Shown in pieces: positions 14,855 through 50,704 of a DNA stretch of 64,000 bases; the stretch's first letter is position 1; every line of letters begins with the position of its first letter. The stretch is from Bacteroidota bacterium (lineage in GTDB: Bacteria > Bacteroidota > Bacteroidia > Bacteroidales > JAGONC01). The position numbers were made by a program, and so were the translations under genes. Below the pieces are notes generated by a model. The model was not told the DNA's origin and did not search any database. It saw only the letters and a program-made list of their open reading frames with translations. The stretch spans positions 3,771 through 67,770 of the forward strand of contig JAKLFC010000009.1 in assembly GCA_022711405.1 (NCBI GenBank). Direction: 5' to 3'.

Positions 14855-14999
14855 TTCCCCGGTTCCTGTAATTTATTTCCGGTAAGAAAAACATTCAATA
14901 ACTTCAGATCATGCTTTTCTGTAATGCCACTCTTTCTCTGAAATCTGCATTGCTCTTCTTATAAGTGTGGTTTTATATCCGAACATGTTGAAGGAGGCT

Positions 15000-31063: not shown

Positions 31064-32458
31064 TCATTTTTTTGCATATTTTCTTTGCAGCAGAAAGTAG
31101 ACCGGTATACCGGCCAGGATAAGGATCGTTCCAATGGCAGCTTCGCGCGGCCTGGTAATGATCGTATTGAAGAACAGGTACAGGCAGAAGAGGATGTACA
31201 ATGCGGGCACGACAGGGTATCCCCAGACTTTGTAAGGACGGTGGACATCGGGCATCCTGCGGCGCAGGATAAATACACCCAGGGATGTGGCACCATAGAA
31301 AATGAACACCGAAAAAATGATCATGTCGGTCAGCTGGTCGAAGGTCCCTGACAGGACCAGCACCGAGGCCCAGATCCCCTGCCACAGCAGCGAATTGCCG
31401 GGGACGCTGGCCCTGTTCAGTTTTCCGATACCCTTAAAGAAAAGCCCGTCGCTGGCCATCGCGTAATAGGGACGGGCGCCGGTGAGAATGCTGGCATTGG
31501 TGCACCCCAGGGTAGTGAGCAGGATCAGCAGGGAAATGAACATGACACCACCGGTTCCCCAGAAGCTTCTGACTGCTTCAACGGCCGCAATCTGGTTATC
31601 AGAGGCATAGATCTGTTCCAGACGGGGAATGGATAAAAGTGCCAGATAGGTCACGTTCACCAGCAGGTAAATGGCGATCACGATAAATACACCCATCACA
31701 ATCCCCCTGGGGATGTTTTTATTCGGGTCTTTGATCTCCCCCCCGATATAACCCACAGAAACCCAGCCCTGGTAAGCCCAGAAAGCAGCCAGCATCGCTG
31801 TGAAGAAAGAGGAGATCGTGACGGTTCCACCTGTCAGCTCCCTGAACTTCATAAAATCCCCGGGTACTTTTTCTACATGGCTCAAACCAAACACGACGAT
31901 CACGAACAAACCTGCGAATACCAGCCCCAGTATGATCTTACTCGTCCTGGCGCCGCTTTTCAGGCCGGTGATATTTAAAAATGTCAACAGTAAGATCAGG
32001 ATGATGGCTGTCATCTTCACTCCGGAATTCTGGAAAGGAAAGAATACTCCGCCAATGGTAACGTTTTGAAGGGAGGGAAATACCTCCGGCAGGGAGATGA
32101 TATTGTTGAGCGATTGGGCAAAAACGTAGGCCAGCGACGAGATGGTGGCTGTCTGGATGACGGCGAACAAAGACCAGCCGTATAAGAATGAGAAAAAGCG
32201 ATTGTAGATCCTTTTCAGGTAGACGTAATCTCCCCCTGTATCAGCAAGCAACCCTGCCACCTCGGCATTGCTCAGCGCTCCAAAGATGGTGATGATCCCT
32301 GCGACGATCCAGGCCAGGAGGATCCACACCGAAGAGTGAAGTTCGGCAGCCATCGGAGCGATCTTTTTATATACACCTGATCCAATGATGTTTGCGACAA
32401 CAAAAATGATCACATAGCTTAAGCCGAGGGTTCTGTTCAAATGCCTTTGATGCACCAT
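31064..32458 (-). CDS. APC-family amino-acid permease
   Basis: 464 aa with about 12 TM helices. N-terminal IGSG.Y and other APC-type patterns are present. Confidence 0.8.
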   Translation of the reverse strand: MVHQRHLNRTLGLSYVIIFVVANIIGSGVYKKIAPMAAELHSSVWILLAWIVAGIITIFGALSNAEVAGLLADTGGDYVYLKRIYNRFFSFLYGWSLFAVIQTATISSLAYVFAQSLNNIISLPEVFPSLQNVTIGGVFFPFQNSGVKMTAIILILLLTFLNITGLKSGARTSKIILGLVFAGLFVIVVFGLSHVEKVPGDFMKFRELTGGTVTISSFFTAMLAAFWAYQGWVSVGYIGGEIKDPNKNIPRGIVMGVFIVIAIYLLVNVTYLALLSIPRLEQIYASDNQIAAVEAVRSFWGTGGVMFISLLILLTTLGCTNASILTGARPYYAMASDGLFFKGIGKLNRASVPGNSLLWQGIWASVLVLSGTFDQLTDMIIFSVFIFYGATSLGVFILRRRMPDVHRPYKVWGYPVVPALYILFCLYLFFNTIITRPREAAIGTILILAGIPVYFLLQRKYAKK

Positions 32459-32534
32459 AGATCGATGGTTGAAAATGAATGAGGCATCTAAATTAAGAAT
32501 TTAGACGTTTAATTCACCGTTGCCGGTTTCGGAA

Positions 32535-32945
32535 TCAGTTTCCAGGGGTTTGTCCTGGATTGCTTACCCCGGATTTTTCTGAAAATTGTATCATGGCCTT
32601 GTCCAGGCTTTCCCGGGTCAGGGGTTTTACGATCGTATAAAGGATGTTAAGAGAATCAATCTCTTCAATATAGTCGACAAAGGAAGTGGTTATGATCACC
32701 GTAAAATCCACATTTTGAAGTGACTGAAGGATATCGAAGCCCTTTCCGTCAGGCAGTTCAATATCCAGGAAAAGAAGGTCAATCTTATGATCTTTAAGAA
32801 ACTCCTCTGACTCTTTCACCGTCTGAGCCATACCGACAATGTGTACATCAGGATAATGATCCTCGAGCAGGTCGCACAGCATCGACCTGCTCAGGGGATC
32901 ATCTTCCGTTATCATGGCGCTGATAGGCATGGCATTGAGTTTCAT
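32535..32945 (-). CDS. Stand-alone receiver (REC-only) protein, truncated paralog of the LytTR regulator
   Basis: 136 aa. The receiver motifs are ITEDD and DLLFLDIELPDGKGFD. By eye it is about half identical to the receiver of 41578..42321, and no output domain follows. Confidence 0.8.
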   Translation of the reverse strand: MKLNAMPISAMITEDDPLSRSMLCDLLEDHYPDVHIVGMAQTVKESEEFLKDHKIDLLFLDIELPDGKGFDILQSLQNVDFTVIITTSFVDYIEEIDSLNILYTIVKPLTRESLDKAMIQFSEKSGVSNPGQTPGN

Positions 32946-32996
32946 GATCCTTCCTCCTTCTCCCCCTCGGGGCTCCTCCCCATGGCATTAACTTGA

Positions 32997-35783
32997 TCAA
33001 TCGTTCATTAAACAACGGATGGATTGAGCGTATGTTTTAGGTCTCTCATCATACCTCCACATTGAGGTGATATCGTTTCTCATGCCACGAGGCCAGGCCA
33101 ATGATTCATCTATCTGTGTTGAAGTCCAGAACATTCCCAAAACTTTCAGGTTCCAGAACAGCCAGTCATCTGTGGTACGGCTGCCCCCTCCAAAAGCAGT
33201 AAATCCGCTGGAATTGGTCGCATCATTGGGCGATTCCCAGTGAGCCAGGCCTGTTTCCTTCAGATTTCCACCGGCATCGTAACCGCGCCAGCCAATATCT
33301 TCCCATTCCAGGTCTCCTACCTGGAACTGGCTGTCGACAGTGCCTTCCAGTATCTTCCACTCGTCATCGGATGCAAGGTGCCACCCCCCAGGACAGATCC
33401 CCAGTGCGCTTTCGGTCGTGACATACTGCATCGCTTCATCCCATTCATAAAGTCCTCCATAGGTGTCACAATTGTAGGAGATGTTATCATAACAGAATTT
33501 TTCAATCACACCGTTGTTTGTCTGCAATACCCCCGGCCCATTGGTGATCATTGTGCCGATATTCATATTCTCCGCCAGCCAGCATTGATCACCTATGAGA
33601 ACCGTGTTATAGGATTGCCCGTCGCGATCATCCACGATGGGTTCGCCACAGGACCATTCCGGTGCGAAGCTGATCTCCACCGTATCCACCGAAGTGCCAC
33701 ACACCGTGTTGCTGATGGTCCAGGTCAGGGTATATGCATGTTCATACAATCCATTGAATATGCTATGCGGATCATCGGGATCATAAACGTTTCCACCGCT
33801 GCCACTCACAATTTGCCATAAACCGTTGCCAAATGTCGGAGCATTGCCAGCCAGCGTGGTAGAATTACCATGGATATTCAGCTGATCGGGTCCTGCATTT
33901 GCGGTGCCTGTCCATATCTTCAGGGTCATGGCATCGCTGACTGGTTCACAGGGGCCATTCCCATTCACATTCAGTGAAAGGATCACTGGGCCGTTCATTT
34001 TATCCCCTGTACTGGGTGTGTAGACAGCTGTCAGGGATGATGGATCATTAAAAGTCCCTGTACCGGAGGTGGTCCAGAGCGCCGAGGAATAATTGGCAGC
34101 TACCCCGTTCAGGTTCAATGAATACTGGGTGCTGCAGATATCTGCGTCATCCCCGGCATTGGCTTCAGGTGCAGCCGTGAATGTCAATGTCATGGTGGAT
34201 GCAGCATCGGGGCACTCTCCACCCCCGGATGCGGCCAGGGTCAACTCAACCTGTCCGCTGTCCATATCTTCCAGGCTGGGTGTGTACATCGGATTTACCC
34301 TTGTGGGATCATCGAAGGTTCCCGTGCCGGAGGTGGTCCAGAGCAGCGTGGCAAAGTTAGCGGCCGTGGCCCCTGAGAGGGAATAGGCTGCATCTCCGCA
34401 GCTGCCGTCATTCTCCCCTGCATAAGCCTTGACAGGTGCACAGCCCCTGAGGCAACGGACAGAATACCCGGCAGCTTTGTCAACATACTTCCGGTACGCA
34501 TGGGGGCTGGCGTAATTCAGAGCACGGTACCATGCGTTTCCGGTACCATCCTCTGAGGAAGACCAGAAAGAGCCTCCTGCACCCATGTTGGCGAAACCGC
34601 CGGTGCTGTAGTCACGGTTCCCTGCCGGGAGGCCCGTGAATCCACTGGAATTGGTAGCACCATAGTTAGGCGGATTCCAGTGCGTTGTCCCTGCTTCTTT
34701 CAGTCCGCTGCCGACATTATATCCACGGTATCCTTCTCCATCCCATTCCATATTTCCAAAGCCATACTGGCCATCCACGGCTCCTTCCAGCACTTTCCAC
34801 TCTTCATCCATGGGAAGACGCCAGCCAGGCGGGCAGATACCCTTTGTCAATGCTTCTGAACTGTATTGCATCGCTTCGTTCCACTGGTAAAGACCACCAT
34901 AGGTATCACAGTTGGATTCCATATCTCCATAACAGTACTTCTCCATTGTTCCATTGTTCGATTGATCGATTGTTCCTGAAATCATGGTGCCTACGTTCAG
35001 GTTTTCCTTCAGCCAGCACTGGCTGAAGATCTGGAGAGTACTGTAAATCTTCCCTGCGTAACTGACCGATGTTTTTTCCGGGCAGGGGATGTTGGAGGCA
35101 AACTGGAAAACATAGGTCCTGTCGGTCTCCGGCCCATCGAGTATACCGGATTTCTGAATGACAGTAGATCCTGTTTGAAGCGATGCTTTCAGAGCGTATG
35201 CATTGGTGGAGCTTTCCAGGTAATCGAGCCTGCACATTTGCCCAATGAGCGTTTCTGAGGTCAGGATCTTTATGCTCCGGCTTACTTCATTCCACCGGGC
35301 TGTGAAGAAAAAGAGGCCACCGCCGCCGGGAAGGAATCTGAACGAATGAGTGCCCTGATCAAGTTGCCGGTCAGAGGCGAGGACCACCCTGCCCTGTACG
35401 TCGGTGACCATGATCTTCACGGTTCCTTTTTCCGGAATGTACATCGAAATGACAGTCTGGTCTGTCACCGGATTCGGGTAGTTCTGAAACAGCTGGAATG
35501 AATTCATCACCGTACCGGACCCGGAAATGCCCACAAAGGCCGGAGTAGCATAACCGATATAAAGCAGGAGGTCACCCGGGGTAATCTCAAGCGATACACT
35601 GGTGTCGGGCCAGTAGATCGTGGTCCCACCACCCTGGGTGCGGTTCATGATCTGAACGCTGTCCAGCCGGACATAAGCAGCACTGTCAATGGCAGTGAAA
35701 GTCAGGTGGAAGGACGTGCTCTGCCCCACGGTCAGCATGAATGCTGCGACAAGGATCAGCAGCAGGGTAAATTTTGTTTTCAT
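32997..35783 (-). CDS. Giant secreted protein with two FISUMP domains, Ig-like repeats and an internal T9SS-CTD-like domain
   Basis: Start chosen at MKTKFTLLLILVAAF (signal peptide). Two Fibrobacter-succinogenes-major-paralogous-type domains are present: YGGLYQWNEAMQ...CPPGWRLPMDEEW...SVRCLRG, and YGGLYEWDEAMQ...CPGGWHLASDDEW...SIRCLMND. Three LWTTSGTGTF.DP repeats lie between them. Confidence 0.8.
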   Translation of the reverse strand: MKTKFTLLLILVAAFMLTVGQSTSFHLTFTAIDSAAYVRLDSVQIMNRTQGGGTTIYWPDTSVSLEITPGDLLLYIGYATPAFVGISGSGTVMNSFQLFQNYPNPVTDQTVISMYIPEKGTVKIMVTDVQGRVVLASDRQLDQGTHSFRFLPGGGGLFFFTARWNEVSRSIKILTSETLIGQMCRLDYLESSTNAYALKASLQTGSTVIQKSGILDGPETDRTYVFQFASNIPCPEKTSVSYAGKIYSTLQIFSQCWLKENLNVGTMISGTIDQSNNGTMEKYCYGDMESNCDTYGGLYQWNEAMQYSSEALTKGICPPGWRLPMDEEWKVLEGAVDGQYGFGNMEWDGEGYRGYNVGSGLKEAGTTHWNPPNYGATNSSGFTGLPAGNRDYSTGGFANMGAGGSFWSSSEDGTGNAWYRALNYASPHAYRKYVDKAAGYSVRCLRGCAPVKAYAGENDGSCGDAAYSLSGATAANFATLLWTTSGTGTFDDPTRVNPMYTPSLEDMDSGQVELTLAASGGGECPDAASTMTLTFTAAPEANAGDDADICSTQYSLNLNGVAANYSSALWTTSGTGTFNDPSSLTAVYTPSTGDKMNGPVILSLNVNGNGPCEPVSDAMTLKIWTGTANAGPDQLNIHGNSTTLAGNAPTFGNGLWQIVSGSGGNVYDPDDPHSIFNGLYEHAYTLTWTISNTVCGTSVDTVEISFAPEWSCGEPIVDDRDGQSYNTVLIGDQCWLAENMNIGTMITNGPGVLQTNNGVIEKFCYDNISYNCDTYGGLYEWDEAMQYVTTESALGICPGGWHLASDDEWKILEGTVDSQFQVGDLEWEDIGWRGYDAGGNLKETGLAHWESPNDATNSSGFTAFGGGSRTTDDWLFWNLKVLGMFWTSTQIDESLAWPRGMRNDITSMWRYDERPKTYAQSIRCLMND

Positions 35784-35792
35784 AAGTGAAGA

Positions 35793-35878
35793 TTTTAGAG
35801 TTCGGATCAAATGTAGGAATGGTTTAAGCAGGATTCTTACGGGAGTTTCCGGTTTGCGGGGTAGAGTTTCCGGTTGGA
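35793..35878 (-). promoter_or_regulatory. Bipartite conserved promoter region with two AGTTTCCGGT repeats 21 bp apart (LytTR-box-like)
   Basis: GAGTTTCCGGTT occurs at 35843..35854 and 35864..35875. The 19-nt block 35793..35811 (sense TTTGATCCGAACTCTAAAA) ends 9 nt from the ATG at 35783. The same architecture occurs at 41428..41513. Confidence 0.55.
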
Positions 35879-36042
35879 TGAGATCCCGACTTGTGAGCAG
35901 ACATATATAATGATCACCACTGGTCAGCATGATATTTTCGTGGCGATGATTCTTTTATCATTGATTTGGGCATAAAATAACCATATATTTGCTTATAACG
36001 ATCTCTCCCCCCGGCTGGAGGAGGGGTCATAACAAACACCCC

Positions 36043-38964
<2,922 letters not shown>

Positions 38965-39036
38965 TCAACCTGATCTGAAGTCTATGATCCTGTATGGCAG
39001 GATTGTAAAATAAAAAACGAGCTGTACCCAACATAC

Positions 39037-39145
39037 TTAACCACAAAGGAACTCAAAGGTTTTCACGAAGATCACAAAGTATATTAATTGATTATCAATA
39101 ACTTGATGTTCCCTGGTGTAATCCTTTGAGTTCCTTCGTGGTTAA
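39037..39145. repeat. 109-nt inverted-repeat element of the TTAACCAC family between convergent genes
   Basis: The arms are TTAACCACAAAGGAACTCAAAGG (39037..39059) and CCTTTGAGTTCCTTCGTGGTTAA (39123..39145), matching at 22/23. Internal CACGAAG and CACAAAG heptamers are present. Confidence 0.8.
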
Positions 39146-39191
39146 AAATGAATTTTGAAACAGTCTCTTTTTGAATTGATCAGCTGGTTAT

Positions 39192-41417
39192 CTATTTCTG
39201 TACAACGAGTTTTTTCGTTGTTGAAAAATCGCCGGCCTGCAGACGATAAAAATACATTCCAGTGGAAAGGTCATCCGATGAAAGCTGAACAATATGCTCT
39301 CCCATGCTTTGAAACTCGCTCACCAGCATTATGACTTCTTTTCCGAAAGAATTGTATACTTTCAATGTAACAAATTCATCGACCGGGAGGGAATAATGGA
39401 TCGTCGTGTACGCATTGAATGGATTGGGATAATTCCACGTCCGGGGGCTTTCTGCTGTTGAAAGATCAGCCGTTGCCATCACTCCGCCCTGTTTTAAAAG
39501 GAAATGTTTAAGGACATCAATGATCCTTTCCGCGGAGGCTATCAATGCATTTGCCTGATCATCAGACAGTATTCCTGCATTGTGGAAGTCAGTCACCTGG
39601 TTGATAAATGCATAAAGCATGTTGATCGCTGCGTTATGATTTTCCTGATCCATCTTTTTTATTGCATTCTCAAGTTTAACGATGAGGGAATTTCCTTGTC
39701 CCTTGTTGAGTACTTTGGAAGCGACCAGTTCCTGAACGTCTGCAATCAGATCGTGCGTTGCCTCCTGCGGGGTTTGGACCGTGATATTGACAAGGCAGGA
39801 CTCACTATCCTCAGTACCATCATTAACGATGAGTTGCACCTGGTACTCTCCTGCGACATCCGCTTCAAAGCTGGGATCCACGACGGCTGAATTGCTGAGT
39901 GTGGCACTGCTGCCGGAGGGCTGGGACAGGATGGACCACGAATAGGTGATCGCGTCCCCGTCCTGGTCACTGGAACCGCTGCCATCCAGCTGGACCGTTT
40001 CGGTAATGATCTTGAGCTGGTCATCTCCGCAATCAGCGACCGGGGGCAGATTTACCAGGAGTTTCATGAGGAATGCGTCGGATCCACCGACGCGTGTTGG
40101 ACCGAGATCTCCGTTAGTTTGTCCGTTGAAATAAGCGAATGAGGATGATACAGCCAGGGTCCATGTATAATCCCTGGCTGTTGTTGTTCCAACTTTTGCA
40201 CTGCCTATCTGCTTGATCCAAAGCTGGTCACCGTTTTGATTATATTTGGCAATAAAAATATCCTCTCCACCAATGTTGGTGGTTTGTCCGGTAAAGGTGC
40301 CGGTAGTAAATCCATTGATGTAAACACCTGAAGTGCTGGCAGAAATGCCAAATCCATTATCAACTCCTATAGTTCCGGAAGTTCCGGGAGTTCCGAATTC
40401 CCTGACCCATAGCATATTGCCGTCGAGGTCATGCTTCGCTATAAAAACATCGGAATTTCCAAGATAGATTTGACCGGTGAAAGTACCATTGGTAAACCCT
40501 GAAACGTATAAGGCTGTTTTGTCAGCCGAGATCTCTTGTACGTAATCAGGTAAAGTAGTTCCAAATCGTTGGTTCCAGGCCTCACACCCTTCAAGGCTGT
40601 ATTTTGCAATGAAGTAATCATTTTGACTCCCTACACTGTTATCGTATCCGCAAATATAGAATCCTGAGGCAACAACATAAATGCCGGTACACCAGTCATT
40701 TCCGGCAGTTCCCTTTTGTGTAAGCCAAAGCTGAGTGCCATCTGGACTGTATTTAGTAATAAAATAATCCCTTCCGCCTAGATTGGAATATCCCGAAAAA
40801 GCACCAAATGTGGTACCGGTTATGTATATGCCCGTTGCATCCAAAGCGATTGCATCACTCGGATTATCCAAACCTGCTGTTCCAAATTGTGTTGTCCAGA
40901 GCTCATTGCCGTTGTGATCATACTTTTTAATAAAAGCATCTGAAGAACCAAAGTTGGAAGGACCGGAGAGTATACCATTTGTGTATCCCATAACGTAAAC
41001 GCCTGAGGCGTCAACAGCAACTCCGGTTGCATTATCGTCGCTAGCTGTTCCGAATTGCCTGATCCATAGCTGATTGCCAGCAAGATCGTATTTTGCGATA
41101 TAGGCATCATAAGCAGGTAAAGCTGGAGGAGCCGGGACCGGGCTGGGATTGGTGAATCCCGGGAAGCTTCCGCTCGTATATCCGGCAACATATATGAAAT
41201 TCCCATCGGTACAGATACCTCTGCTTATATCAGCCATTGAGGGATTACTCCCACATGTAGTACCATACTGCCGGATCCAGGTGATGCCGGGAACCGTTTG
41301 TGCATGAACGGATCCCCACTGGCAGACCGTTGATATAAAAAGCACCATGAACACGTATGCGTTCATCTGCAGGCTCCTTGAAAGAGCTCCCTGAAAAGAG
41401 GTAGAATTTGTTTTCAT
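39192..41417 (-). CDS. T9SS-secreted protein: SBBP-type beta-propeller repeats, PKD/Ig-like domain, helical region, C-terminal sorting domain
   Basis: 741 aa with a signal peptide. It has at least 7 repeats of about 45 aa (FGT..D.A.G...D..G.Y..G.T.G.F.G......D.FI.KY...G..LW). The PKD-like segment reads DGSGSSDQDGDAITYSW. The T9SS CTD reads WNYPNPFNAYTTIHYSLP...GMYFYRLQAGDFSTTKKLVVQK. Confidence 0.8.
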   Translation of the reverse strand: MKTNSTSFQGALSRSLQMNAYVFMVLFISTVCQWGSVHAQTVPGITWIRQYGTTCGSNPSMADISRGICTDGNFIYVAGYTSGSFPGFTNPSPVPAPPALPAYDAYIAKYDLAGNQLWIRQFGTASDDNATGVAVDASGVYVMGYTNGILSGPSNFGSSDAFIKKYDHNGNELWTTQFGTAGLDNPSDAIALDATGIYITGTTFGAFSGYSNLGGRDYFITKYSPDGTQLWLTQKGTAGNDWCTGIYVVASGFYICGYDNSVGSQNDYFIAKYSLEGCEAWNQRFGTTLPDYVQEISADKTALYVSGFTNGTFTGQIYLGNSDVFIAKHDLDGNMLWVREFGTPGTSGTIGVDNGFGISASTSGVYINGFTTGTFTGQTTNIGGEDIFIAKYNQNGDQLWIKQIGSAKVGTTTARDYTWTLAVSSSFAYFNGQTNGDLGPTRVGGSDAFLMKLLVNLPPVADCGDDQLKIITETVQLDGSGSSDQDGDAITYSWSILSQPSGSSATLSNSAVVDPSFEADVAGEYQVQLIVNDGTEDSESCLVNITVQTPQEATHDLIADVQELVASKVLNKGQGNSLIVKLENAIKKMDQENHNAAINMLYAFINQVTDFHNAGILSDDQANALIASAERIIDVLKHFLLKQGGVMATADLSTAESPRTWNYPNPFNAYTTIHYSLPVDEFVTLKVYNSFGKEVIMLVSEFQSMGEHIVQLSSDDLSTGMYFYRLQAGDFSTTKKLVVQK

Positions 41418-41427
41418 AAGTTTGGGG

Positions 41428-41513
41428 TTTTAAAGTTCGGATCAAACTTATGATAATAAAAATGCTGATCCATTCGGGAGTTTCCCGTTTACGGGAATCA
41501 GTTTCCGGTTGGA
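41428..41513 (-). promoter_or_regulatory. Second copy of the bipartite promoter (AGTTTCC(C/G)GT x2, 21-bp register)
   Basis: AGTTTCCCGT at 41479..41488 and AGTTTCCGGT at 41500..41509. The 19-nt block 41428..41446 (sense TTTGATCCGAACTTTAAAA) ends 10 nt from the ATG at 41417. Confidence 0.55.
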
Positions 41514-41562
41514 GGGGGAGATGACCCCTCCCCCGACACCCCCTCCCCTTCAGGGGAGGGGG
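41511..41562 (-). terminator. GC-rich hairpins between the LytTR gene stop and the downstream promoter
   Basis: CCCCCTCCCCT-TC-AGGGGAGGGGG (41539..41562) has an 11-bp stem. GGAGGGG-N7-CCCCTCC lies at 41511..41531. Both sit directly after the stop at 41578..41580. There is no clear U-run, so the terminator role is inferred. Confidence 0.45.
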
Positions 41563-41577
41563 ACGGGGGGTGAGGTA

Positions 41578-42321
41578 TTACTCCTCAATCGCTTTCAGGA
41601 ATTCATCCTTGCGGCTGCGGGATACCGGTACGGTTTCTCCTGTCGTCATGATCACGTGTCCCCCTTCGCCGCGAATATACTGTTTAACCTGGCCGAGATT
41701 GATGATATGGGAATAGTGCACGCGGATGAAATTATGGTTGAGCAGCCGTTCCTCGAAGTCCCCCAGAGGGCTTGACACCATGATCCTTTCATGGGTATTC
41801 AGTGAAAAAACCGAATAGGCCCTGTCGGCTTCGGCATGCACGATATCCTCGAAATTGACAAAAACAAATCCTTCCAGTGTCGGTAACGGTAATTTCAGGC
41901 ACTTCGGATTGAAATAGGCCTCTTTCTGTTTTGAGGGCTTTGAGGATCCGAACTTCTTCATGAACTTCGTCAAGGCATGGCTAAGGTCATCCTTCGTAAC
42001 AGGTTTGATCAGGAAGTCGAGTGCGCTGTGCCGTATGGCATCCAGCGCATAGCTGCTGTGCGAGGTGGTGACGATCACCTCAAAAGGAACCTCCTGCATT
42101 TCAGAGAGCAGGTCAAATCCTTTTCCATCGGGCAGTTCGACGTCGAGGAAAAGAAGATCGATGTTCAGGCATTTAAGCAACATCCTGGCTTCCTGCAGGG
42201 AGGTGGCGGTCCCAGCCACCTTTATTTCCGGGAAATGATCATTGAGCAGATCCTGTAAAATCAAGCTGTCCAGAGGGTTATCCTCGGTGATCAGCGCCAG
42301 AAACCTGCGTAGATGTTCCAT
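41578..42321 (-). CDS. LytTR-family response regulator (REC + LytTR DNA-binding domain)
   Basis: 247 aa. The receiver motifs are ITEDNP, DLLFLDVELPDGKGFD and IKPV. The C-terminal LytTR pattern reads FVFVNFEDIVHAEADRAYSVFSL...FIRVHYSHIINLGQVKQY. Confidence 0.9.
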   Translation of the reverse strand: MEHLRRFLALITEDNPLDSLILQDLLNDHFPEIKVAGTATSLQEARMLLKCLNIDLLFLDVELPDGKGFDLLSEMQEVPFEVIVTTSHSSYALDAIRHSALDFLIKPVTKDDLSHALTKFMKKFGSSKPSKQKEAYFNPKCLKLPLPTLEGFVFVNFEDIVHAEADRAYSVFSLNTHERIMVSSPLGDFEERLLNHNFIRVHYSHIINLGQVKQYIRGEGGHVIMTTGETVPVSRSRKDEFLKAIEE

Positions 42322-42459
42322 CCTGAATTTGATTTCGGTGTAAATATATTAAATTTGGGATAGTGGTGCTTAATGGAAATTCTTGAAAACTGTTTCAATG
42401 GATTGCATCATTCAATAAAAATATATTAATTTCGGGCATTCAACTTTAAAACACCTCTT

Positions 42460-43113
42460 ATGAAACCTAACATCATCATTGCTTTCATGCTTTTATGCAT
42501 GACATTCTTCTGCGCATGTGAACTCTTCGAGGATGATGACGACAATACCTCCATCAGTGGTGAGCAATCGGAAATGGGGAAAGTAGGGACGACCGTTGAA
42601 TCCACATCGGTGGAATACTTTGGGGTGAAGGATTTTCATGCTGAGGTGACCACCCTCAGCGACGGGGTTTCCTCCCTGTCGGGCAGTGCAGTGGTTACGA
42701 ATACATTCCTGAAGAACCTCATGTCGAATTTCCCGGAAGTGACCATCAAGGGCGATACGGTGATCGCCACGGGCATTAAAGGCAAGAATACGAAGGAAGG
42801 AATTGAGCTGATCTCGGGTCCGACACACGGCATCATCGTCAAATACGGCTCTTCGGTCGGGGATGAGTACCCGATCGGATCCACGGGCACCTCCCGAAAG
42901 GTGGTCAGCAAGTCCTCGACAGACGATTACCCCTACGGATTCATGTACATCAAAGTGATACAGGTCGAGGAAATCCCGTCTGCCCTTAAAAGTGCAGGGA
43001 TCAGCAAGATCACCTACTGGGCCAATCACCGTTTCGGGCTGGTAGGCGTCGATTTCACGTTTGATGATCAGACCACCGCTGATTTTCCAATCTACACCAG
43101 CGCAGAGAACTAA
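42460..43113 (+). CDS. Lipoprotein of unknown function
   Basis: 217 aa with a lipobox-like signal (MTFFCAC). I recognise no motif. Confidence 0.55.
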   Translation: MKPNIIIAFMLLCMTFFCACELFEDDDDNTSISGEQSEMGKVGTTVESTSVEYFGVKDFHAEVTTLSDGVSSLSGSAVVTNTFLKNLMSNFPEVTIKGDTVIATGIKGKNTKEGIELISGPTHGIIVKYGSSVGDEYPIGSTGTSRKVVSKSSTDDYPYGFMYIKVIQVEEIPSALKSAGISKITYWANHRFGLVGVDFTFDDQTTADFPIYTSAEN

Positions 43114-43141
43114 AGGGGATCAGGTCCCGGAGCATCATCCC

Positions 43142-44395
43142 ATGAGAACCCTTACGATCAGGGGAGAGAAAAAACGGATCCCGCCTTATCCGCATCACAA
43201 GAACTTTGTTTACCGTGCGAACCTTTTTTTCACAGCGAACCACCTGCTGGGCTGGTTCATGGTCAACGGACCCCGGAAAGCGCTTCGGAGGATGTGGATC
43301 CAAAAGAGGTACGGCTTTTCAGTACCCCTCAACCTGCTGATCGATCCCACCAGCGCATGCAACCTCAACTGCCTGGGGTGCTGGGCGGCCGACTATGGCA
43401 AAACAAGCGAGCTTTCCTATGACAAGCTTGATGAGATCCTTACGGAAGCATGGCATCTGGGTATTTATGACATCGTCATGAGCGGCGGGGAACCCCTCAT
43501 GCGGAAAGCAGATATCCTGAGGTTATGTGAAAAGCACAAGGAACTCTCCTTTGCCCTTTTTACGAACGGGACCCTCATCGATGACTCCTTTGCCGATGAA
43601 ATCGCCAGGCTGGGTAACCTGAATATTTTTGTCAGCATCGAAGGATTCCGGGAAAAGACTGATTTCAGACGGGGTAAAGGGACTTTCGATAAAGCTACAG
43701 CTGCCATGGATCTGTTAAAATCGCGTGACATTGGATTCGGTTTTTCGGTTTGTTATCATGCGCTGAATTATGAGGAGGTATGCAGTGATGCCTTCCTGGA
43801 TTTCCTGCTGGAAAAGGGAGCGTGGATGGGATGGATGTTCATCTACATGCCAATCGGCAGTGATGCGGACAGTAGCCTCTGCCTGAATGCAAACCAGCGT
43901 ACCTACGTAAGGGAGAAGCTCGGATCCTACCGGACCAGGCACCGCTTCACGCTCATCGATTTTGCCAACCTCGGCCACAAGGCGTTTGGATGCGTGGCCG
44001 CTGGCAATGAATTTGCCCACATCAACGCGCACGGGGACCTGGAACCCTGTGCCTTCTTTCACTATTCCGATACGAACCTGCATGACAAAACCCTGAAAGA
44101 GGCCCTGGCTTCCCCCTTTTTCAGGCATTTCAGGAAACACAAACCGCTCTCTGAAAATCCTCACCGCCCATGCCCCATCATGGATGTGCCGGAAAAACTG
44201 GTCCCGATCATTCATCATGAAGGAGTGCTTTCGACCCATCTGCATCATCCGGAGACCGCTGAGGCGCTTGCCTCGAAGACCCGACCCCTGGCAGAAGGAT
44301 GGAAAATAAAAGCCGATGAACTGTTCAGGGATATGCCTGAAAAAGAGAAGCGAAAGTTCCGCCGGCTTGCCCGGTTCATCATTTACCGGCACTGA
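43142..44395 (+). CDS. Radical SAM protein of an uncharacterised family
   Basis: Start chosen at MRTLTIRGEKK, which avoids overlap with the upstream gene. It has CNLNCLGCW (CX3CX2C), GGEPLMR and the conserved C-terminal region HINAHGDLEPCAFFHYSD...RPCPIMD. Confidence 0.8.
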   Translation: MRTLTIRGEKKRIPPYPHHKNFVYRANLFFTANHLLGWFMVNGPRKALRRMWIQKRYGFSVPLNLLIDPTSACNLNCLGCWAADYGKTSELSYDKLDEILTEAWHLGIYDIVMSGGEPLMRKADILRLCEKHKELSFALFTNGTLIDDSFADEIARLGNLNIFVSIEGFREKTDFRRGKGTFDKATAAMDLLKSRDIGFGFSVCYHALNYEEVCSDAFLDFLLEKGAWMGWMFIYMPIGSDADSSLCLNANQRTYVREKLGSYRTRHRFTLIDFANLGHKAFGCVAAGNEFAHINAHGDLEPCAFFHYSDTNLHDKTLKEALASPFFRHFRKHKPLSENPHRPCPIMDVPEKLVPIIHHEGVLSTHLHHPETAEALASKTRPLAEGWKIKADELFRDMPEKEKRKFRRLARFIIYRH

Positions 44396-44488
44396 ATCCT
44401 CCACTTACTATTCCATTGCGGGTACAGGGATAGAATTAAAAAATTTCCATATCGACCGTTCAGAATGTATAAAAAGCCTATATATTTG

Positions 44489-44508
44489 CATACCGAACGT
44501 TTAGTATG
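44489..44508. promoter_or_regulatory. Imperfect 20-nt palindrome, candidate TetR operator
   Basis: CATACCGAACGTTTAGTATG is self-complementary at 16/20 positions and ends 8 nt upstream of the TetR ATG (44516). Confidence 0.4.
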
Positions 44509-44515
44509 TAATGCC

Positions 44516-45103
44516 ATGGCGGAAACAAGAGAAATCATCATTGACCAGGCGTACCGGCTTTTCCTGAGCAGAAGCTATGAAGCCGTATCGATCCAGGATA
44601 TCAGCAAATCGGTCGGGCTGACCAAAGGGGCGCTCTATCATCATTTTCTGAACAAGGAGGAGCTGTTTAAGGCCGTTATCGACAAGTACCTCAAACTGGT
44701 GGGTCTGATCCAGGTCAGGCAGGATATCACCCTGGAGGAGTATATACAGGTGATCATTGAATATGTCAGCCGGATCGTCCAAACGATCTGCATCGACGGC
44801 CAGTCATTCATTCCCGTCAAGTACCTGTTGTTGCTGATCGATGCCCTGAGGCACTACCCCGGGTATATGGACGAGCAACGGCATTTCTACACATTAGGTA
44901 CTGATCATCTGAAAACCATTCTGGACAGGGCTGTAAAAAATGGTGAGATCCGGGGAGATATCGACACTTCCCTGGTAGCATTGAATTTCACTTCCATTGC
45001 GCTTGGTGTAGCTGCCAGCCTTTTCAGGGAACATTCGACGCAGGAAACCATCCAGCTACTTCGATCCCAGATGGTTGAATATTACAAGATCCTGAAAAAA
45101 TAA
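44516..45103 (+). CDS. TetR/AcrR-family transcriptional repressor
   Basis: Start chosen at MAETREIIIDQAYRLF. The HTH is YEAVSIQDISKSVGLTKGALYHHFLNKEELF. Confidence 0.85.
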   Translation: MAETREIIIDQAYRLFLSRSYEAVSIQDISKSVGLTKGALYHHFLNKEELFKAVIDKYLKLVGLIQVRQDITLEEYIQVIIEYVSRIVQTICIDGQSFIPVKYLLLLIDALRHYPGYMDEQRHFYTLGTDHLKTILDRAVKNGEIRGDIDTSLVALNFTSIALGVAASLFREHSTQETIQLLRSQMVEYYKILKK

Positions 45104-45186
45104 ACGAAACAGATGTGACAACTCCCCTGATCATAAGTTGCATGAAAAGCGGGTAAAAGAGTGATAACAATTTAAATCTTAATCAT

Positions 45187-46212
45187 ATGAGAAAAGCCAA
45201 TCTTATTTTTATGCTCCTTGCCGTGGTCACAGGGTGCAATCATCGCGGAACCGATGTACCATTGACCAGGGCTGCCATCAATGTCAGGATTCAGACGGTG
45301 GAAGGATCGAAAACGGCTGGTATCCTGAGTTATGTGGGGACGATCGAAGAAAAATCCTCCACAGCGCTCAGTTTTGCCACGCTGGGGATGATTGAGAAAT
45401 TCTTCATTTCTGAAGGAGATTACGTTTCGGTCGGACAGCTGCTTGTCAGGCTTGATGATGAATCAGCCCGGAGCATGCTGGTTGCCGCTGAGGCTACATT
45501 AAAACAGGCACAGGACGGATACGACCGTCTTAAACTGGTGCATGATGCGGGAAGTCTGCCCGAGATCCAGATGATCGACATTGAAACCAAACTGCAGCAG
45601 GCGCAGTCGTCCTACGCCATCGCTAAGAACAACCTGAAAAACTGTTCACTGTATGCCCCGGTTTCCGGTGTGATCGGTAAAAAAATGGCGGAAGCCGGCG
45701 AGTATGCAGTGGTTGGAAAAGCTGTTCTTACCATATTGGATATCAGTTCAGTCAAAGTAAGGTTTTCGGTGCCTGAAAACGAAATTTCGGCGATACCTTC
45801 CGGGAGCAGATCCTCCATCACTGTGTCAGCAGTTGGTAATAAAAGGTTTGAAGGCCAGAAGATTGAAAAAAGCGTTTCAGCGAATCCCATCTCCCATACA
45901 TATCCTGCCCATATCCTGTTACCCAACCCTCAGAAGGAGCTCTTACCAGGTATGGTCTGCAGCGTGGAACTTTACCCTGACAGCGCTGTAAAGGAGGCGA
46001 TCGTGATCCCCATTGGGATCATTCAGACCATGGCTGACGGTCAAAAATTTGTCTGGTGCGACAGGGGAGGCGTTGCAAAGCGCGTAGTTGTGACAACCGG
46101 TACGGCAAGGGGCAATGGCGTTGAGATCACGGGCGGACTTTCTGTGGGCGACCGCATCGTTACAGAGGGTTATCAGAAAATCAGTGAAGACGATAAAATC
46201 ACAGGACAATGA
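45187..46212 (+). CDS. RND efflux periplasmic adaptor (MFP)
   Basis: 341 aa with lipobox VVTGC. Lipoyl, hairpin and beta-barrel pattern is present (CSLYAPVSGVIGKK, VKVRFSVPE). Confidence 0.85.
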   Translation: MRKANLIFMLLAVVTGCNHRGTDVPLTRAAINVRIQTVEGSKTAGILSYVGTIEEKSSTALSFATLGMIEKFFISEGDYVSVGQLLVRLDDESARSMLVAAEATLKQAQDGYDRLKLVHDAGSLPEIQMIDIETKLQQAQSSYAIAKNNLKNCSLYAPVSGVIGKKMAEAGEYAVVGKAVLTILDISSVKVRFSVPENEISAIPSGSRSSITVSAVGNKRFEGQKIEKSVSANPISHTYPAHILLPNPQKELLPGMVCSVELYPDSAVKEAIVIPIGIIQTMADGQKFVWCDRGGVAKRVVVTTGTARGNGVEITGGLSVGDRIVTEGYQKISEDDKITGQ

Positions 46213-49200
46213 AACGCAGCCATAGCTTCATCGAATGGACGATGCAACACAAAGGCATTGTCGTCCTCATGATCGTTCTGCTGGTCGTCCTGGGGATCAT
46301 TGCACTCTATGTAATGCCCAAGCAGGAGTTTCCCGGATATACCATCCGTCAGGGGATCATTGTCGGGGTATATCCCGGGGCCACCTCCGAGGAGGTGGAA
46401 AAACAGCTGGCCGAACCCCTCGAGCAATTCCTTTTTTCCTATCCCGAGGTAAAGAGGAGCTTTACGACCACAACCTCTCAAAACGGGATATGCTATGCCA
46501 TGGTCGAACTGAATGACAACGTGAAGAACAAAGATGAGGTATGGTCGAAGATAAAGCACGGGCTTGCAACACTGAAGATGCAACTGCCATCGGGTGTTCT
46601 CGCCCTGATGGCTCAGGATGATTTTGGCGATACTTCGGCGCTTCTTATTGCCATCGGATCCGACAGACGTTCCTACGGGGAGCTGAAGAGTTATGCCGAT
46701 GAATTGATCCGCAGGCTTCACCGCATCGAATCGGTTTCCAATCTCCGTCTGTATGGGATGAAGGATGAACAGGTGACGGTGTATGTGGACCGGAGCAAGC
46801 TCTCGTCGTATGGGATCAGTGACAAGCTGCTATTGGCCGAGGTTTTCAGCCAGTCGCTGGCCCCCGGGGGAAGGATTGAAAATGACGATGTGCTTGTCCC
46901 TGTTCATTTCAAGCCCACATACAGCACGGTCGGTGAGGTTGGTGATCAGATCATTTTCAGCGATCCTGACGGCAATATGATCCGTTTGAAGGATGTGGCG
47001 ACTGTGGTAAGGGAATATCCTGACGGCGGAAGCTATATTACCCATAACGGGCAACCCTGTCTGGTTCTTTCAGTTGAGATGAGAGAAGGCTACAATATTG
47101 TCAGGTTTGGCAAGGATGTCAGTCAAATCATTGAAGTTTACCAGGCAAGCAATCTACCGGATGATGTGACGATCAACTCCATCGCCAACCAGGCAGATGT
47201 GGTGGAAGGCTCGGTCTTATCGTTTCTCCGTGACCTGATGATGGCGATCATCGTGATCATTGTGGTGATGATGATCCTGTTCCCGTTCCGGTCGGCCCTG
47301 GTGGCTGCCATCGTTATCCCCCTGAATACCTTCATCTCGGTGGGGATCATGTACCTGTTCGGAATACCACTGAATACGGTTACCCTGGCAGCACTCGTTG
47401 TTGTGCTTGGAATGACGGTGGACAATTCCATTGTGATCATCGACGGATATATTTACTGCCTTAAAAATGGGTATAAGCCCTGGGATGCGGCCATCGAAAG
47501 CGCCCATAAATATTTCATGCCGATGTTCCTTGCTACCACCTGTATCTGCCTTATTTTCTATCCACTTCTCATCCTGTTCAAGGGCCAGATGCTTGAATTC
47601 ATCTACTTTTTCCCGTTTACCTTCACGATCAATTTGATGATGTCGCTTGTCCTGGCGGTGACGGTCATCCCCATCCTCGAGAACGCGCTGATCAAATCAT
47701 CCGGGATGGATAAGGATGAGCCGGATAAGAAGAGACTGACGGAGAAAGTTCATGACATTTATTTAAAACTGCTTGACTGGAATTTCCGTCATCCGTGGCT
47801 CACCGTCTCCATTGGGGTTGCATCCATTGTGGCCTCATTGTTCATTATCCCGCATATTCGTTTCAGGATGAATCCCCTGGCAGAGCGCGACCAGTTCGCC
47901 GTAGAGATCCATCTGCCTGACGGGACACCGATCAGTCGTACGGGAAAAGTGGCTGATTCCATGAGAATGATCCTTATGAAAGATCAGCGGGTGAGATCGG
48001 TGACCCAGTTTGTGGGGATGTCTTCACCCCGGTTCCATATCTCCTATGCTCCTCAGATGCCTTCCGAGAGTTATGCTCAATTCATTGTCAATACAGGTTC
48101 TCCTGAAGAAACCGAGGCCCTGCTGGATGAATATGCGGACCGTTATGCACATTATTTTCCGAATGCCTACATTAAGTTCAAGCAGATCGATTTTCAGCAT
48201 GTGCCTTCGTACGAGTTCCGTTTTTACGGTGAAGACACCAAAGAGCTGAAAAAGGCGGCTGAGGCTTTAATGGCCAGGATGAAAGAGATGCCTGTGCTTA
48301 CAAATGTCCAAACTGACTGGGGTGAGAAGCTGCCTGTCATGGAGGTGGAATTAGATCCTGTAGCTTCCTCACGGCTTGGGGTGACCCGTTCCGTTACATC
48401 AGCCAACCTGATGCTGGCCACGGGTAAATTCACCATGGGATCACTCACCGAGGGTAACGACAACATTCCGATAGTCCTGAAAACGGATGATCCGGAAGGC
48501 AAACCTACCCTGGAAGGGCTTTCCTGCACACTGGTAACGGGCCTGATCCCCTCGGTCAGCGTCCCTTTGAGGCAGATAGCCTCCGTGGTGCCCCAGTGGA
48601 GCGAAAACAGCATTGTCCATCGTAATGGCATCAGGACCATATCCGTAACTGCCGATCCAAAGAGGAATGTAATACCGGCCCGCTCACTTTCCGCTATCCG
48701 CGATTTTATCAAAAATGATCTTGAACCATCACTACCGGCAGGAATAATATACCAGGTGGGAGGTGAACCAGAATACAACAAGGAGAACCTGTCGCCTGTG
48801 ATCTACGCGATCATTGCCGCCTTTGCCATCATATTCCTTTTCCTGCTGTTTACCTATGGCAAATTCAAGCTCACGATCATTTCACTGTTTACTTTATTGC
48901 TGTTCATGTTCGGTGCGACGTTCGGTCTCTGGATCGCCCACTATACGGTCGGGATCACAGCAGCCCTCGGGCTGATTGGCTTATTCGGACTTACGGTGAG
49001 GAATGTGATCCTGATGTTTCAGCATGCCGAGCAGAGGTTCGCCGTGGAAGGATGGACGGCACGGGATGCGGCCTACGATGCTGGCAAGCGTAGGATGATA
49101 CCCATCTTTCTGACTTCCGCTGCTGCATCCGTCGGGGTCATTCCCATGATCATCTCAGGAAGTTCATTCTGGGCACCCGTTGGTATGGTGATCTGTGCAG

Positions 49201-49277
49201 GGGGAGTTTGCCTGCTGCTGCTGACGATTACGATCCTCCCGGTCCTTTACTGGAAATTTAATGAAAAAAAGCGATGA
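46209..49277 (+). CDS. RND efflux permease (AcrB/HAE1-type)
   Basis: 1022 aa with a 12-TM architecture and two large periplasmic loops. It overlaps the MFP stop by 4 nt. Confidence 0.9.
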   Translation: MKRSHSFIEWTMQHKGIVVLMIVLLVVLGIIALYVMPKQEFPGYTIRQGIIVGVYPGATSEEVEKQLAEPLEQFLFSYPEVKRSFTTTTSQNGICYAMVELNDNVKNKDEVWSKIKHGLATLKMQLPSGVLALMAQDDFGDTSALLIAIGSDRRSYGELKSYADELIRRLHRIESVSNLRLYGMKDEQVTVYVDRSKLSSYGISDKLLLAEVFSQSLAPGGRIENDDVLVPVHFKPTYSTVGEVGDQIIFSDPDGNMIRLKDVATVVREYPDGGSYITHNGQPCLVLSVEMREGYNIVRFGKDVSQIIEVYQASNLPDDVTINSIANQADVVEGSVLSFLRDLMMAIIVIIVVMMILFPFRSALVAAIVIPLNTFISVGIMYLFGIPLNTVTLAALVVVLGMTVDNSIVIIDGYIYCLKNGYKPWDAAIESAHKYFMPMFLATTCICLIFYPLLILFKGQMLEFIYFFPFTFTINLMMSLVLAVTVIPILENALIKSSGMDKDEPDKKRLTEKVHDIYLKLLDWNFRHPWLTVSIGVASIVASLFIIPHIRFRMNPLAERDQFAVEIHLPDGTPISRTGKVADSMRMILMKDQRVRSVTQFVGMSSPRFHISYAPQMPSESYAQFIVNTGSPEETEALLDEYADRYAHYFPNAYIKFKQIDFQHVPSYEFRFYGEDTKELKKAAEALMARMKEMPVLTNVQTDWGEKLPVMEVELDPVASSRLGVTRSVTSANLMLATGKFTMGSLTEGNDNIPIVLKTDDPEGKPTLEGLSCTLVTGLIPSVSVPLRQIASVVPQWSENSIVHRNGIRTISVTADPKRNVIPARSLSAIRDFIKNDLEPSLPAGIIYQVGGEPEYNKENLSPVIYAIIAAFAIIFLFLLFTYGKFKLTIISLFTLLLFMFGATFGLWIAHYTVGITAALGLIGLFGLTVRNVILMFQHAEQRFAVEGWTARDAAYDAGKRRMIPIFLTSAAASVGVIPMIISGSSFWAPVGMVICAGGVCLLLLTITILPVLYWKFNEKKR

Positions 49278-50644: not shown

Positions 50645-50704
50645 GGATATCCGATGGAACGATTAACCGATATTTGATATTCGATTAAATCAAATCTTTC
50701 CGAA

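Follow-up and report, generated by a model that had tools for sequence, protein, structure and literature searches.

Tandem repeats upstream of two secreted-protein genes as predicted operators of a LytTR regulator and phosphorelay in an uncultured Bacteroidales bacterium

Do two genes for large secreted proteins that share an unusual promoter also share a regulator, and is that regulator the LytTR-type protein encoded beside one of them? This question is raised by a locus from an uncultured Bacteroidota bacterium (Bacteroidales; JAGONC01; assembly GCA_022711405.1, contig JAKLFC010000009.1, positions 3,771-67,770, forward strand). We analyzed the whole stretch of 64,000 nt, called the window hereafter, with the focus on positions 32535-42321, for which an earlier note had proposed a circuit running from a hybrid sensor kinase through the LytTR regulator to two target genes, one for a FISUMP protein and one for an SBBP beta-propeller/PKD protein with a type IX secretion system (T9SS) sorting domain. 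Sequence, conservation, linkage and a fold model of the kinase's HPt domain support this circuit, in which DNA binding and phosphotransfer are the predicted steps. We consider it probable that a multistep phosphorelay and the LytTR regulator switch on the genes for secreted or surface proteins via tandem operators.

The evidence begins with the DNA upstream of the two genes. The pattern ACSGGAAACT-N11-ACSGGAAACT has only two matches in the window, at 35844-35874 and 41479-41509, both on the minus strand (0.00 expected by chance; 100 shuffles), and exact copies of the 10-mer occur in only one other place. The 42-nt block described in the earlier note, 34/42 identical between the loci and containing two repeats 21 bp apart, was reproduced in its coordinates, its counts and its distances to the start codons at 35783 and 41417. 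We delimit a conserved upstream element of 39 nt that constitutes the predicted operator in each case. Predicted operator A, upstream of the FISUMP gene, lies at 35839..35877 on the minus strand, with a distal repeat ACCGGAAACT at 35865-35874 and a proximal repeat ACCGGAAACT at 35844-35853, followed by CCCG. Predicted operator B, upstream of the SBBP/PKD gene, lies at 41474..41512 on the same strand, with a distal repeat ACCGGAAACT at 41500-41509 and a proximal repeat ACGGGAAACT at 41479-41488, again followed by CCCG. A repeat search reveals three collinear blocks common to both loci, with start-to-start spacings of 5635, 5635 and 5634: the upstream element (35832-35878/41467-41513; 81% over 47 nt), a block nearer the gene (35793-35818/41428-41453; 85% over 26 nt) and the start-codon region (35766-35787/41400-41421; 91% over 22 nt), which includes the ATG and the first codons.

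The middle block contains the sequence TTTGATCCGAACTYTAAAA, which matches the window only at 35793-35811 and 41428-41446, even when 3 mismatches are allowed (0.04 expected); the sense strands read ...TACATTTGATCCGAACTCTAAAATCTTCACTTATG at the FISUMP locus and ...TAAGTTTGATCCGAACTTTAAAACCCCAAACTTATG at the SBBP/PKD locus. The earlier note had taken it for a second binding box. The conserved block is present as stated, but it is better read as the TTTG end of a sigma-A -7 box followed by a putative 5' untranslated or initial transcribed region of ~20 nt. In flavobacterial maps of transcription start sites, the sigma-A -7 box TAnnTTTG occupies positions -12..-5 (PMC9723704). We find this box as TACATTTG at 35808..35815 in the FISUMP promoter and as TAAGTTTG at 41443..41450 in the SBBP/PKD promoter, both on the minus strand, and TAnnTTTG recurs at an identical offset (62) in all seven closest sites, including those from related genomes described below. 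By this consensus, transcription would start near 35803 (ATG 35783) and 41438 (ATG 41417), which places the repeats at about -71..-62 and -50..-41. No TTG or TTTG is found at the expected -33 position in the alignment of the seven promoters; we read a good -7 box, the lack of a -33 element and a tandem site just upstream together as the layout of an activator-dependent promoter. The intervening spacer, previously described as ~32 nt of unrelated sequence, does include ~21 nt that are free to vary, but the TA of the -7 box and a CCG that is conserved fall within it as well. A generic sigma-70 promoter scan (16 matches versus 13.3 expected) is uninformative for Bacteroidota.

The candidate for a protein that reads these repeats is encoded at 41578..42321 on the minus strand: a REC-LytTR response regulator of 247 aa. 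Its receiver domain (Pfam Response_reg, 61 bits; cut-off 30) has the phospho-acceptor Asp60 in LFLDVELPDG and the pocket residues E13/D14, D60, T85 and K106, whose equivalent columns are invariant in 40 homologs, and its LytTR domain (PF04397, 58.4 bits; cut-off 22.6) covers residues 152-245 and profile positions 3-97 of 98. Pfam confirms this assignment as well as those of the TPR/HisKA/HATPase/REC kinase, the FISUMP protein and the SBBP/PKD/T9SS protein. Operators of LytTR proteins consist of two direct or inverse repeats of 9-11 nt, 11-13 nt apart and without a common consensus (PMC4847170). The site in the window, with 10-nt repeats and an 11-nt spacer, conforms to this published rule, so that the LytTR-type geometry suggested earlier (10 + 11 + 10) holds. 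The LytTR protein is, in addition, the only DNA-binding protein that is consistently found in the module alongside the element, and we infer that it binds the tandem repeats.

We then compared related loci. The regulator has 268 homologs at E<=1e-20, the named ones being LytTR family proteins from Bacteroidales metagenome-assembled genomes (MAGs), and contigs were looked up for 12 of them, three as gene lists only, with their promoters unread. Graded by identity of the LytTR protein, these relatives stand at 85% (contigs L173, L174 and L175), 77% (L176, L181/L183 and L180), 69% (L178), 68% (L179), 65% (L184), 61% (L185) and 60% (L093). In L173, a histidine kinase gene is divergent from the LytTR gene, which is followed by the SBBP/PKD/T9SS gene, by a second, convergent kinase gene and, divergent from the latter, by the FISUMP gene and a receiver gene. 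The 85% relative shares the gene order of the window, and both of its promoters carry ACCGGAAACT-N11-ACCGGAAATT and TAnnTTTG. The 77% relatives have ACGGGAATCA....CCCG....GGGAAATTTCCGC and then TAnnTTTG upstream of other target genes, which encode a 111-aa protein and, after it, a beta-helix T9SS protein in L176 and L181/L183, and a stand-alone receiver, placed directly behind the LytTR gene, in L180. Across the alignment of seven promoters, the invariant columns are CC..CGG.AA......CC.G..A...GGAAA.T.CCG in the upstream element and TC.TA..TTTGA in the core, separated by ~21 nt that are essentially free except for one invariant T.

A position weight matrix of the 39-nt element, built from these seven sites, was scanned over 183 kb, made up of the 64-kb window and ~120 kb of orthologous loci. 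The training sites score 47-57 bits (53.5 for operator A and 51.6 for operator B), and three untrained sites, one in L178 and two in L179, score 18.8-20.6 bits. The L178 site and one of the L179 sites immediately follow the LytTR gene, and the other L179 site lies upstream of an fn3/PPC/T9SS gene. No match of 18.8 bits or more arose in 60 simulations of 169 kb, and the maximum was 15.2 bits in a negative control, 630 kb of actual sequence surrounding distant LytTR genes, obtained from a metagenome search for related loci with a 40-sequence alignment, in which the matches listed were mostly 35-43% relatives. The 65% relative L184 carries GTTGGGAAAT-N11-GTTGGGAAAT directly after its LytTR gene. 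In 11/11 sites, the GGRAA core starts at positions 6 and 27 of the element, i.e., 21 bp apart, and the TAnnTT box stands at offset 62 from its first base. Seven ortholog groups (LytTR identity 65-85%) keep the GGRAA cores, the CCG after the proximal repeat and the TAnnTT box.

The location of the sites follows a pattern, too: most lineages have one immediately behind the LytTR gene. In the window, L173, L178, L179 and L184, the LytTR stop codon is followed by the site within ~10-80 nt, and in L180 the site falls in the 185-nt gap behind the LytTR gene; it occupies the divergent gap next to the partner kinase gene in the case of operator A, the second L173 site, L176 and L181. The element could have been a dispersed repeat, a concern of the earlier note, but in the 64 kb of the window and the ~120 kb of orthologous loci it occurs only before genes beside the LytTR/kinase module, and loci with regulators as little as 65% identical still keep the repeats, in the 21-bp register and at the same distance from the core promoter. 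This footprint across genomes, together with the differing target genes, bears out the view that selection on binding sites, rather than a recent duplication, maintains the promoter likeness.

One weaker match of the matrix was rejected as a third operator: the stretch 14848-14886 of the window (minus strand; ACCGGAAATA..ACCGGGGAAT; 17.2 bits, with ~0.03 such matches expected per 169 kb) is without a -7 box, has ACCGG starts 20 rather than 21 bp apart and is antisense to the end of a DUF3667 gene, and it is probably not functional. A search for ACSGGAAACT-N11-ACSGGAAACT in 185,579 genomes returned 92 stretches, nearly all of them tandem heptamer arrays (GGAAACY)n or coding repeats from unrelated phyla; the block-2 sequence stands beside none of the 92, and the exact-pattern scan is uninformative. 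Long tandem arrays of 21-nt units with ACCGGAAACT or ACGGGAAACT in >8 copies were seen in L064, L038 and L050, all three from the Prevotellaceae MAG Cf509_bin1, which is of the termite-gut type, and, with L040 and L087, in Fibrobacterota; these arrays have no connection with the promoter under study. In a 35% LytTR relative (L167, 3936-3974), CATTGGGAAAC-N10-CATTGGGAAAT stands in the same 21-bp register ~475 nt downstream of the LytTR gene, and a far broader set of LytTR regulators in Bacteroidota may therefore use the half-site GGGAAAY.

Upstream of the regulator in the proposed circuit is the hybrid sensor kinase encoded at 36043..38964 on the plus strand (973 aa), which consists of a signal peptide, a TPR region, one transmembrane segment, HisKA (His473), HATPase and REC (Asp767) domains and a tail, residues 834-973, with His913. 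The TPR sensor region is presumed to be periplasmic. Pfam scores are high for HisKA (73.5 bits), HATPase_c (99.4 bits) and Response_reg (86 bits), and the phospho-sites are H473 in SHEIRTPLN and D767 in LVLMDIRMPG. No PF06580 (LytS/His_kinase) protein is present among the window proteins scanned, the adjoining kinase being of the HisKA PF00512 type. The tail had been read as an HPt domain, a reading that sequence profiles would not have given and that a structure model supports. Its family is small: an exhaustive HMMER search among 1.84 billion representative proteins found 9 representatives at E<=0.001, and a word-indexed homolog search found 3 proteins. Two remote homologs of the tail match PF01627 below threshold (E 0.01 and 0.11) over positions 2-81 and 2-78 of 84. 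An AlphaFold2 model built from a 10-sequence alignment has a pLDDT of 87.4 and a pTM of 0.78 (a single-sequence model, with pLDDT 55, was unusable), and its six best Foldseek matches in the PDB are all HPt proteins: HptB (7c1i), a Shewanella domain (3myf, three chains), ZmHP2 (1wn0) and BarA (3iqt), with probabilities of 0.99-1.00 and TM scores of 0.64-0.79 normalized by target, and with E-values of only ~0.02. His913 is invariant among the tail homologs and lies within helix 72-89 of the model, its alignment to the active His not being displayed. From this model we accept that the tail adopts a divergent HPt fold, and phosphotransfer is its predicted activity.

The pairing of kinase and regulator is supported by orthology. 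Of the two L173 kinases, the one encoded divergently from the LytTR gene shares 79% identity with the window kinase, and the one in the same position as the latter, between the two target genes, only 59%; the window kinase is the ortholog of the regulator's usual neighbor, in agreement with the pairing proposed earlier. Kinases of the TPR/HisKA/HATPase/REC type flank the LytTR ortholog in at least 9 of the 12 look-ups, often as two kinases, and in L185 two kinases, a receiver and the LytTR regulator form a same-strand cluster (HK-HK-REC-LytTR) with weak Pfam Hpt matches on both kinases.

The proposed circuit would operate as follows. The membrane kinase would sense a signal through its TPR domain and autophosphorylate on His473, and the phosphoryl group would pass to Asp767 of the kinase's own receiver, from there to His913 of the divergent C-terminal HPt and finally to Asp60 of the LytTR regulator. 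Two phosphorylated regulators would bind side by side on the direct repeats (consensus SGGRAAAY, here ACSGGAAACT), 21 bp apart and centered near -66 and -45 of the two promoters, where RNA polymerase would need an activator, the sigma-A -7 box being present and the -33 element absent. The genes predicted to be switched on encode the SBBP/PKD T9SS cargo protein and the FISUMP protein, the latter together with a stand-alone receiver encoded downstream of it; this receiver would drain phosphoryl groups from the HPt or form inactive heterodimers, providing negative feedback. The activating direction of the regulator is likewise predicted, from the promoter layout.

Several observations weigh against this circuit. 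The link between protein and site is circumstantial, built on co-location and geometry. The L184 site scores only 9.3 bits with the matrix and was recognized by eye and by the repeat search, and neither L185 (61%) nor L093 (60%) has a clear tandem site within the available DNA. Residues 839-973 of the kinase have no Pfam match (HPt, PF01627) even at E<=10, and a profile of 8 tail sequences finds no HPt among PDB sequences, the only match being a designed repeat protein. HPt proteins have a conserved Gly at His+4, within the motif HxxKG (PMC6341664), and the tail reads H913-K-L-L-P, with a Pro at this position that is nearly invariant in the family. The scan of this genome covers 64 kb, and any further sites, and hence the true extent of the regulon, would lie outside it. 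Finally, the element contains partial palindromes, TTCCCG-N4-CGGGAA in operator B and GGAAATTTCC in the 77% group, so that the binding mode could differ from pure tandem binding.

These palindromes also speak for another reading, an unlikely one in our judgment, according to which the element is the operator of some other, unlinked factor, for example a dimeric helix-turn-helix protein on CGG...CCG palindromes, and the LytTR protein acts elsewhere. Such a factor would account for TTCCCG-TAAA-CGGGAA in operator B, for GGAAATTTCC in L176, L181 and L180, and for the conserved CCG after the proximal repeat, which falls outside a simple direct repeat. However, the palindromes vary between sites (operator A has ACCCCG-CAAA-CCGGAA), whereas every one of the 11 sites has the direct GGRAA cores 21 bp apart, and the element tracks the LytTR gene, which encodes the sole consistent DNA-binding protein of the module, in seven ortholog groups; LytTR sites may, moreover, be direct or inverse repeats anyway (PMC4847170). 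It is also conceivable, with a small chance, that the likeness of the promoters is a remnant of duplication or gene conversion of a cassette of promoter and signal peptide, without a shared regulator, given that the similarity runs through the ATG and the first five codons and that the promoters of a genome have variants in common that are private to it: in the proximal repeat, the window has GGAAACT twice and L173 has GGAAATT twice, and L179 has two sites that hardly differ. These shared variants fit co-evolution with one regulator, which also predicts them, and gene conversion would give the same picture. A cassette remnant accords poorly with the patchiness of the conservation, in which the repeats and the -7 box are invariant and the ~21 nt between them are free, with the same pattern between genomes whose flanking genes are only 78-86% identical in DNA, and with its retention upstream of different targets (the 111-aa protein, the receiver and the fn3/PPC protein).

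A further alternative assigns GGAAAC to the -35 box of a promoter for an extracytoplasmic function (ECF) sigma factor, so that an alternative sigma factor rather than an activator would drive the genes; GGAAC/GAAAC-like -35 boxes are typical of ECF sigma promoters, and GGAAAC resembles them. ECF-type promoters do exist in Bacteroidota (PMC9723704), but no conserved -10-like element occurs 16-18 nt after either repeat, where the sequence is variable, the TAnnTTTG box follows the proximal GGRAAAY core at exactly 29 nt, a distance beyond that of a -35/-10 pair, and the module has no sigma or anti-sigma gene. We rejected this reading on the missing -10 element and the distance of the sigma-A box, and it retains only a very slight probability.

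The first of the two predicted targets, the FISUMP gene (32997..35783, minus strand), encodes a protein of 928 aa with an N-terminal signal peptide and two FISUMP domains (Pfam Fib_succ_major, 207 bits; TIGR02145, 229 bits), and the gene call in L173 uses the same ATG. A T9SS sorting domain is missing from the C terminus of this protein, which has just a weak match of 24 bits in its interior, at residues 102-160. The second target (39192..41417, minus strand) is an SBBP beta-propeller/PKD/FIMAH protein of 741 aa, which ends in a T9SS type A sorting domain (Por_Secre_tail; TIGR04183, 55.6 bits, residues 663-740 of 741). With 928 and 741 aa, the two proteins are large rather than "giant," as they had been called.

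The stand-alone receiver, which the earlier note did not mention, is encoded at 32535..32945 on the minus strand (136 aa; Pfam Response_reg) and keeps the acidic pocket and a phospho-acceptor, Asp61. It is 46% identical to the REC domain of the regulator, with DNA 74% identical over 69 nt, and by sequence it is a (truncated) paralog of that domain. Its gene begins 51 nt downstream of the FISUMP stop codon (8 nt in L173), and no promoter box or terminator was seen in the 51-nt gap, so that the two genes are probably cotranscribed. Such receivers are encoded behind the FISUMP gene in L173 and behind a beta-helix T9SS gene at the P0013 locus; in L180 the operator stands immediately before one, and L185 has one within the kinase-regulator operon. 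The stand-alone receiver probably acts in negative feedback, as a phosphate sink or a dominant-negative partner.

Other features of the locus concern its transcription. The kinase gene has what looks like a self-sufficient sigma-A promoter, TTG-N20-TATATTTG at 35961..35991 (plus strand), ~52 nt upstream of the ATG at 36043, and a promoter scan flags TTGATT-17-TATATT there. An RNA fold confirms the GC hairpin noticed earlier between the LytTR gene and the SBBP/PKD promoter: it spans 41517..41584 on the minus strand, overlaps the LytTR stop codon (-49.1 kcal/mol, z -2.5), is followed by no T tract and probably serves as a terminator or as an insulator that separates the LytTR gene from operator B. 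C-rich/G-rich leader or intergenic hairpins of several relatives resemble it, and CCCCC...GGGGG hairpins are found near kinase and LytTR genes at 36000-36033 of the window, at 9882-9935 of L176 and upstream of the LytTR gene in L179 and L180. The convergent gap between the kinase and SBBP/PKD genes holds a 121-nt hairpin at 39031-39151 (arms 39032-39066 and 39116-39150; -43 kcal/mol, z -6.4), single-copy in the window and 97% identical to 13083-13191 of L173, where the flanking genes are only ~78-81% identical; it may be a bidirectional terminator, a small RNA or an element like a miniature inverted-repeat transposable element. Rfam searches of 32400-42600 gave only spurious matches to miRNA families below threshold.

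The kinase genes themselves appear to have been rearranged. The window carries a single TPR hybrid kinase, compared with two paralogs in relatives; in place of the LytTR-divergent kinase of L173, the window carries an 8.3-kb block (42357-50704 versus 7032-9950 of L173) with a 217-aa open reading frame lacking a family match, a radical SAM (rSAM)/SPASM protein, a TetR regulator and an RND efflux pump. The promoter box of the lost kinase, TAAATTTG (42349-42356), is still present, orphaned. The surviving kinase has the sensor of the lost neighbor and the position of the other kinase, which suggests recombination between paralogs. We considered the 217-aa frame (42460-43113) as a kinase remnant and rejected it: it has no Pfam or NCBIfam match and lies inside the block 42357-50704, which has no counterpart between the L173 rSAM and LytTR genes. 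In L173, a 262-aa gene annotated as Response_reg only (19692-20480, minus strand) adjoins the stand-alone receiver, and its DNA is 78% identical to 38070-38880 of the window, a likeness that makes it a free-standing REC-HPt fragment of a third kinase copy.

The proposed circuit would work like YpdB/BtsR, AgrA, ComE or PlnC where it meets the DNA, and like ArcB, BarA or TorS in its signaling part. As in YpdA/YpdB and BtsS/BtsR of Escherichia coli, a REC-LytTR regulator is associated with two direct repeats at a target promoter, here from sequence; YpdB binds GGCATTTCAT x2 cooperatively (PMC4847170). The regulator's best NCBIfam matches are BtsR and LytR (79-82 bits, below the equivalog cut-offs). 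In contrast to YpdA and BtsS, which are of the LytS type (5TM-Lyt/His_kinase PF06580), the kinase is a TPR hybrid with HisKA, REC and HPt. The repeats also differ in sequence from those of YpdB and BtsR, the core promoter belongs to the -7/-33 type of Bacteroidota, and secreted proteins take the place of transporters as targets. The arrangement of tandem imperfect direct repeats before weak promoters, with an activator as the regulator, is also that of AgrC/AgrA, ComD/ComE and PlnB/PlnC/PlnD. In the pln system, a second regulator antagonizes the first, according to work cited in PMC4847170, which resembles the antagonism proposed for the truncated receiver, although the antagonist here is without a DNA-binding domain. 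Unlike those Gram-positive systems, the module has no peptide pheromone gene or HPK10-type kinase and would use a phosphorelay in place of one-step transfer.

On the kinase side, the cytoplasmic order HisKA-HATPase-REC-HPt is that of ArcB, BarA and TorS, which are the best NCBIfam matches of the kinase core (TorS 393, BarA 350 and ArcB 288 bits, all below equivalog cut-offs), and the tail model superposes on the HPt domains of BarA (3iqt) and of the Shewanella hybrid kinase (3myf). It differs from these kinases in the presumed periplasmic TPR array as sensor, in HKLLP instead of HxxKG and in being paired with a LytTR rather than an OmpR/NarL-type regulator. Two-component control of surface or T9SS-related genes in Bacteroidota is known from FimS/FimR and PorY/PorX/SigP of Porphyromonas gingivalis. 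The sensor region of FimS is of the TPR type, and residues 210-688 of the window kinase match the NCBIfam model HK_Porph_FimS at 5e-42, below its cut-off; unlike FimS, the kinase here is a hybrid, and unlike FimR and PorX, the regulator is of the LytTR type. PorX and SigP govern the machinery of secretion, in contrast to the cargo-type targets here. By kinase type, the system falls outside the classes of LytS/LytTR and HPK10/LytTR pairs, and it is LytTR-like at the DNA end only.

LytTR regulators are abundant in Bacteroidota, and our literature searches found no characterized operator or regulon of a Bacteroidota LytTR regulator, no LytTR link to T9SS cargo and no regulator of FISUMP-family genes; in the literature searched, FISUMP domains appear mainly as targets of diversity-generating retroelements. 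The result is a well-supported in silico regulon prediction whose gain is incremental, the parts and the logic being classical. As a broader and more tentative proposal, for which we see somewhat less than an even chance, the locus may represent a dedicated module of one or two TPR hybrid kinases with fast-diverging sensors, a lineage-restricted HPt (HKLLP), a LytTR regulator and a decoy receiver in the target operons, serving as an on/off switch for variable surface or T9SS cargo (FISUMP, SBBP/PKD and beta-helix proteins). The locus predicts a 39-nt operator, the start sites, the phospho-sites His473, Asp767, His913 and Asp60, and a candidate decoy receiver. If the circuit is correct, a LytTR regulator from Bacteroidota would for the first time have an operator sequence, FISUMP genes would gain their first regulator, and decoy-receiver feedback would be exemplified in a LytTR circuit; it would also mean that a LytTR regulator can take its input from a His-Asp-His-Asp relay that has a TPR sensor, instead of from a kinase of the LytS or AgrC type.

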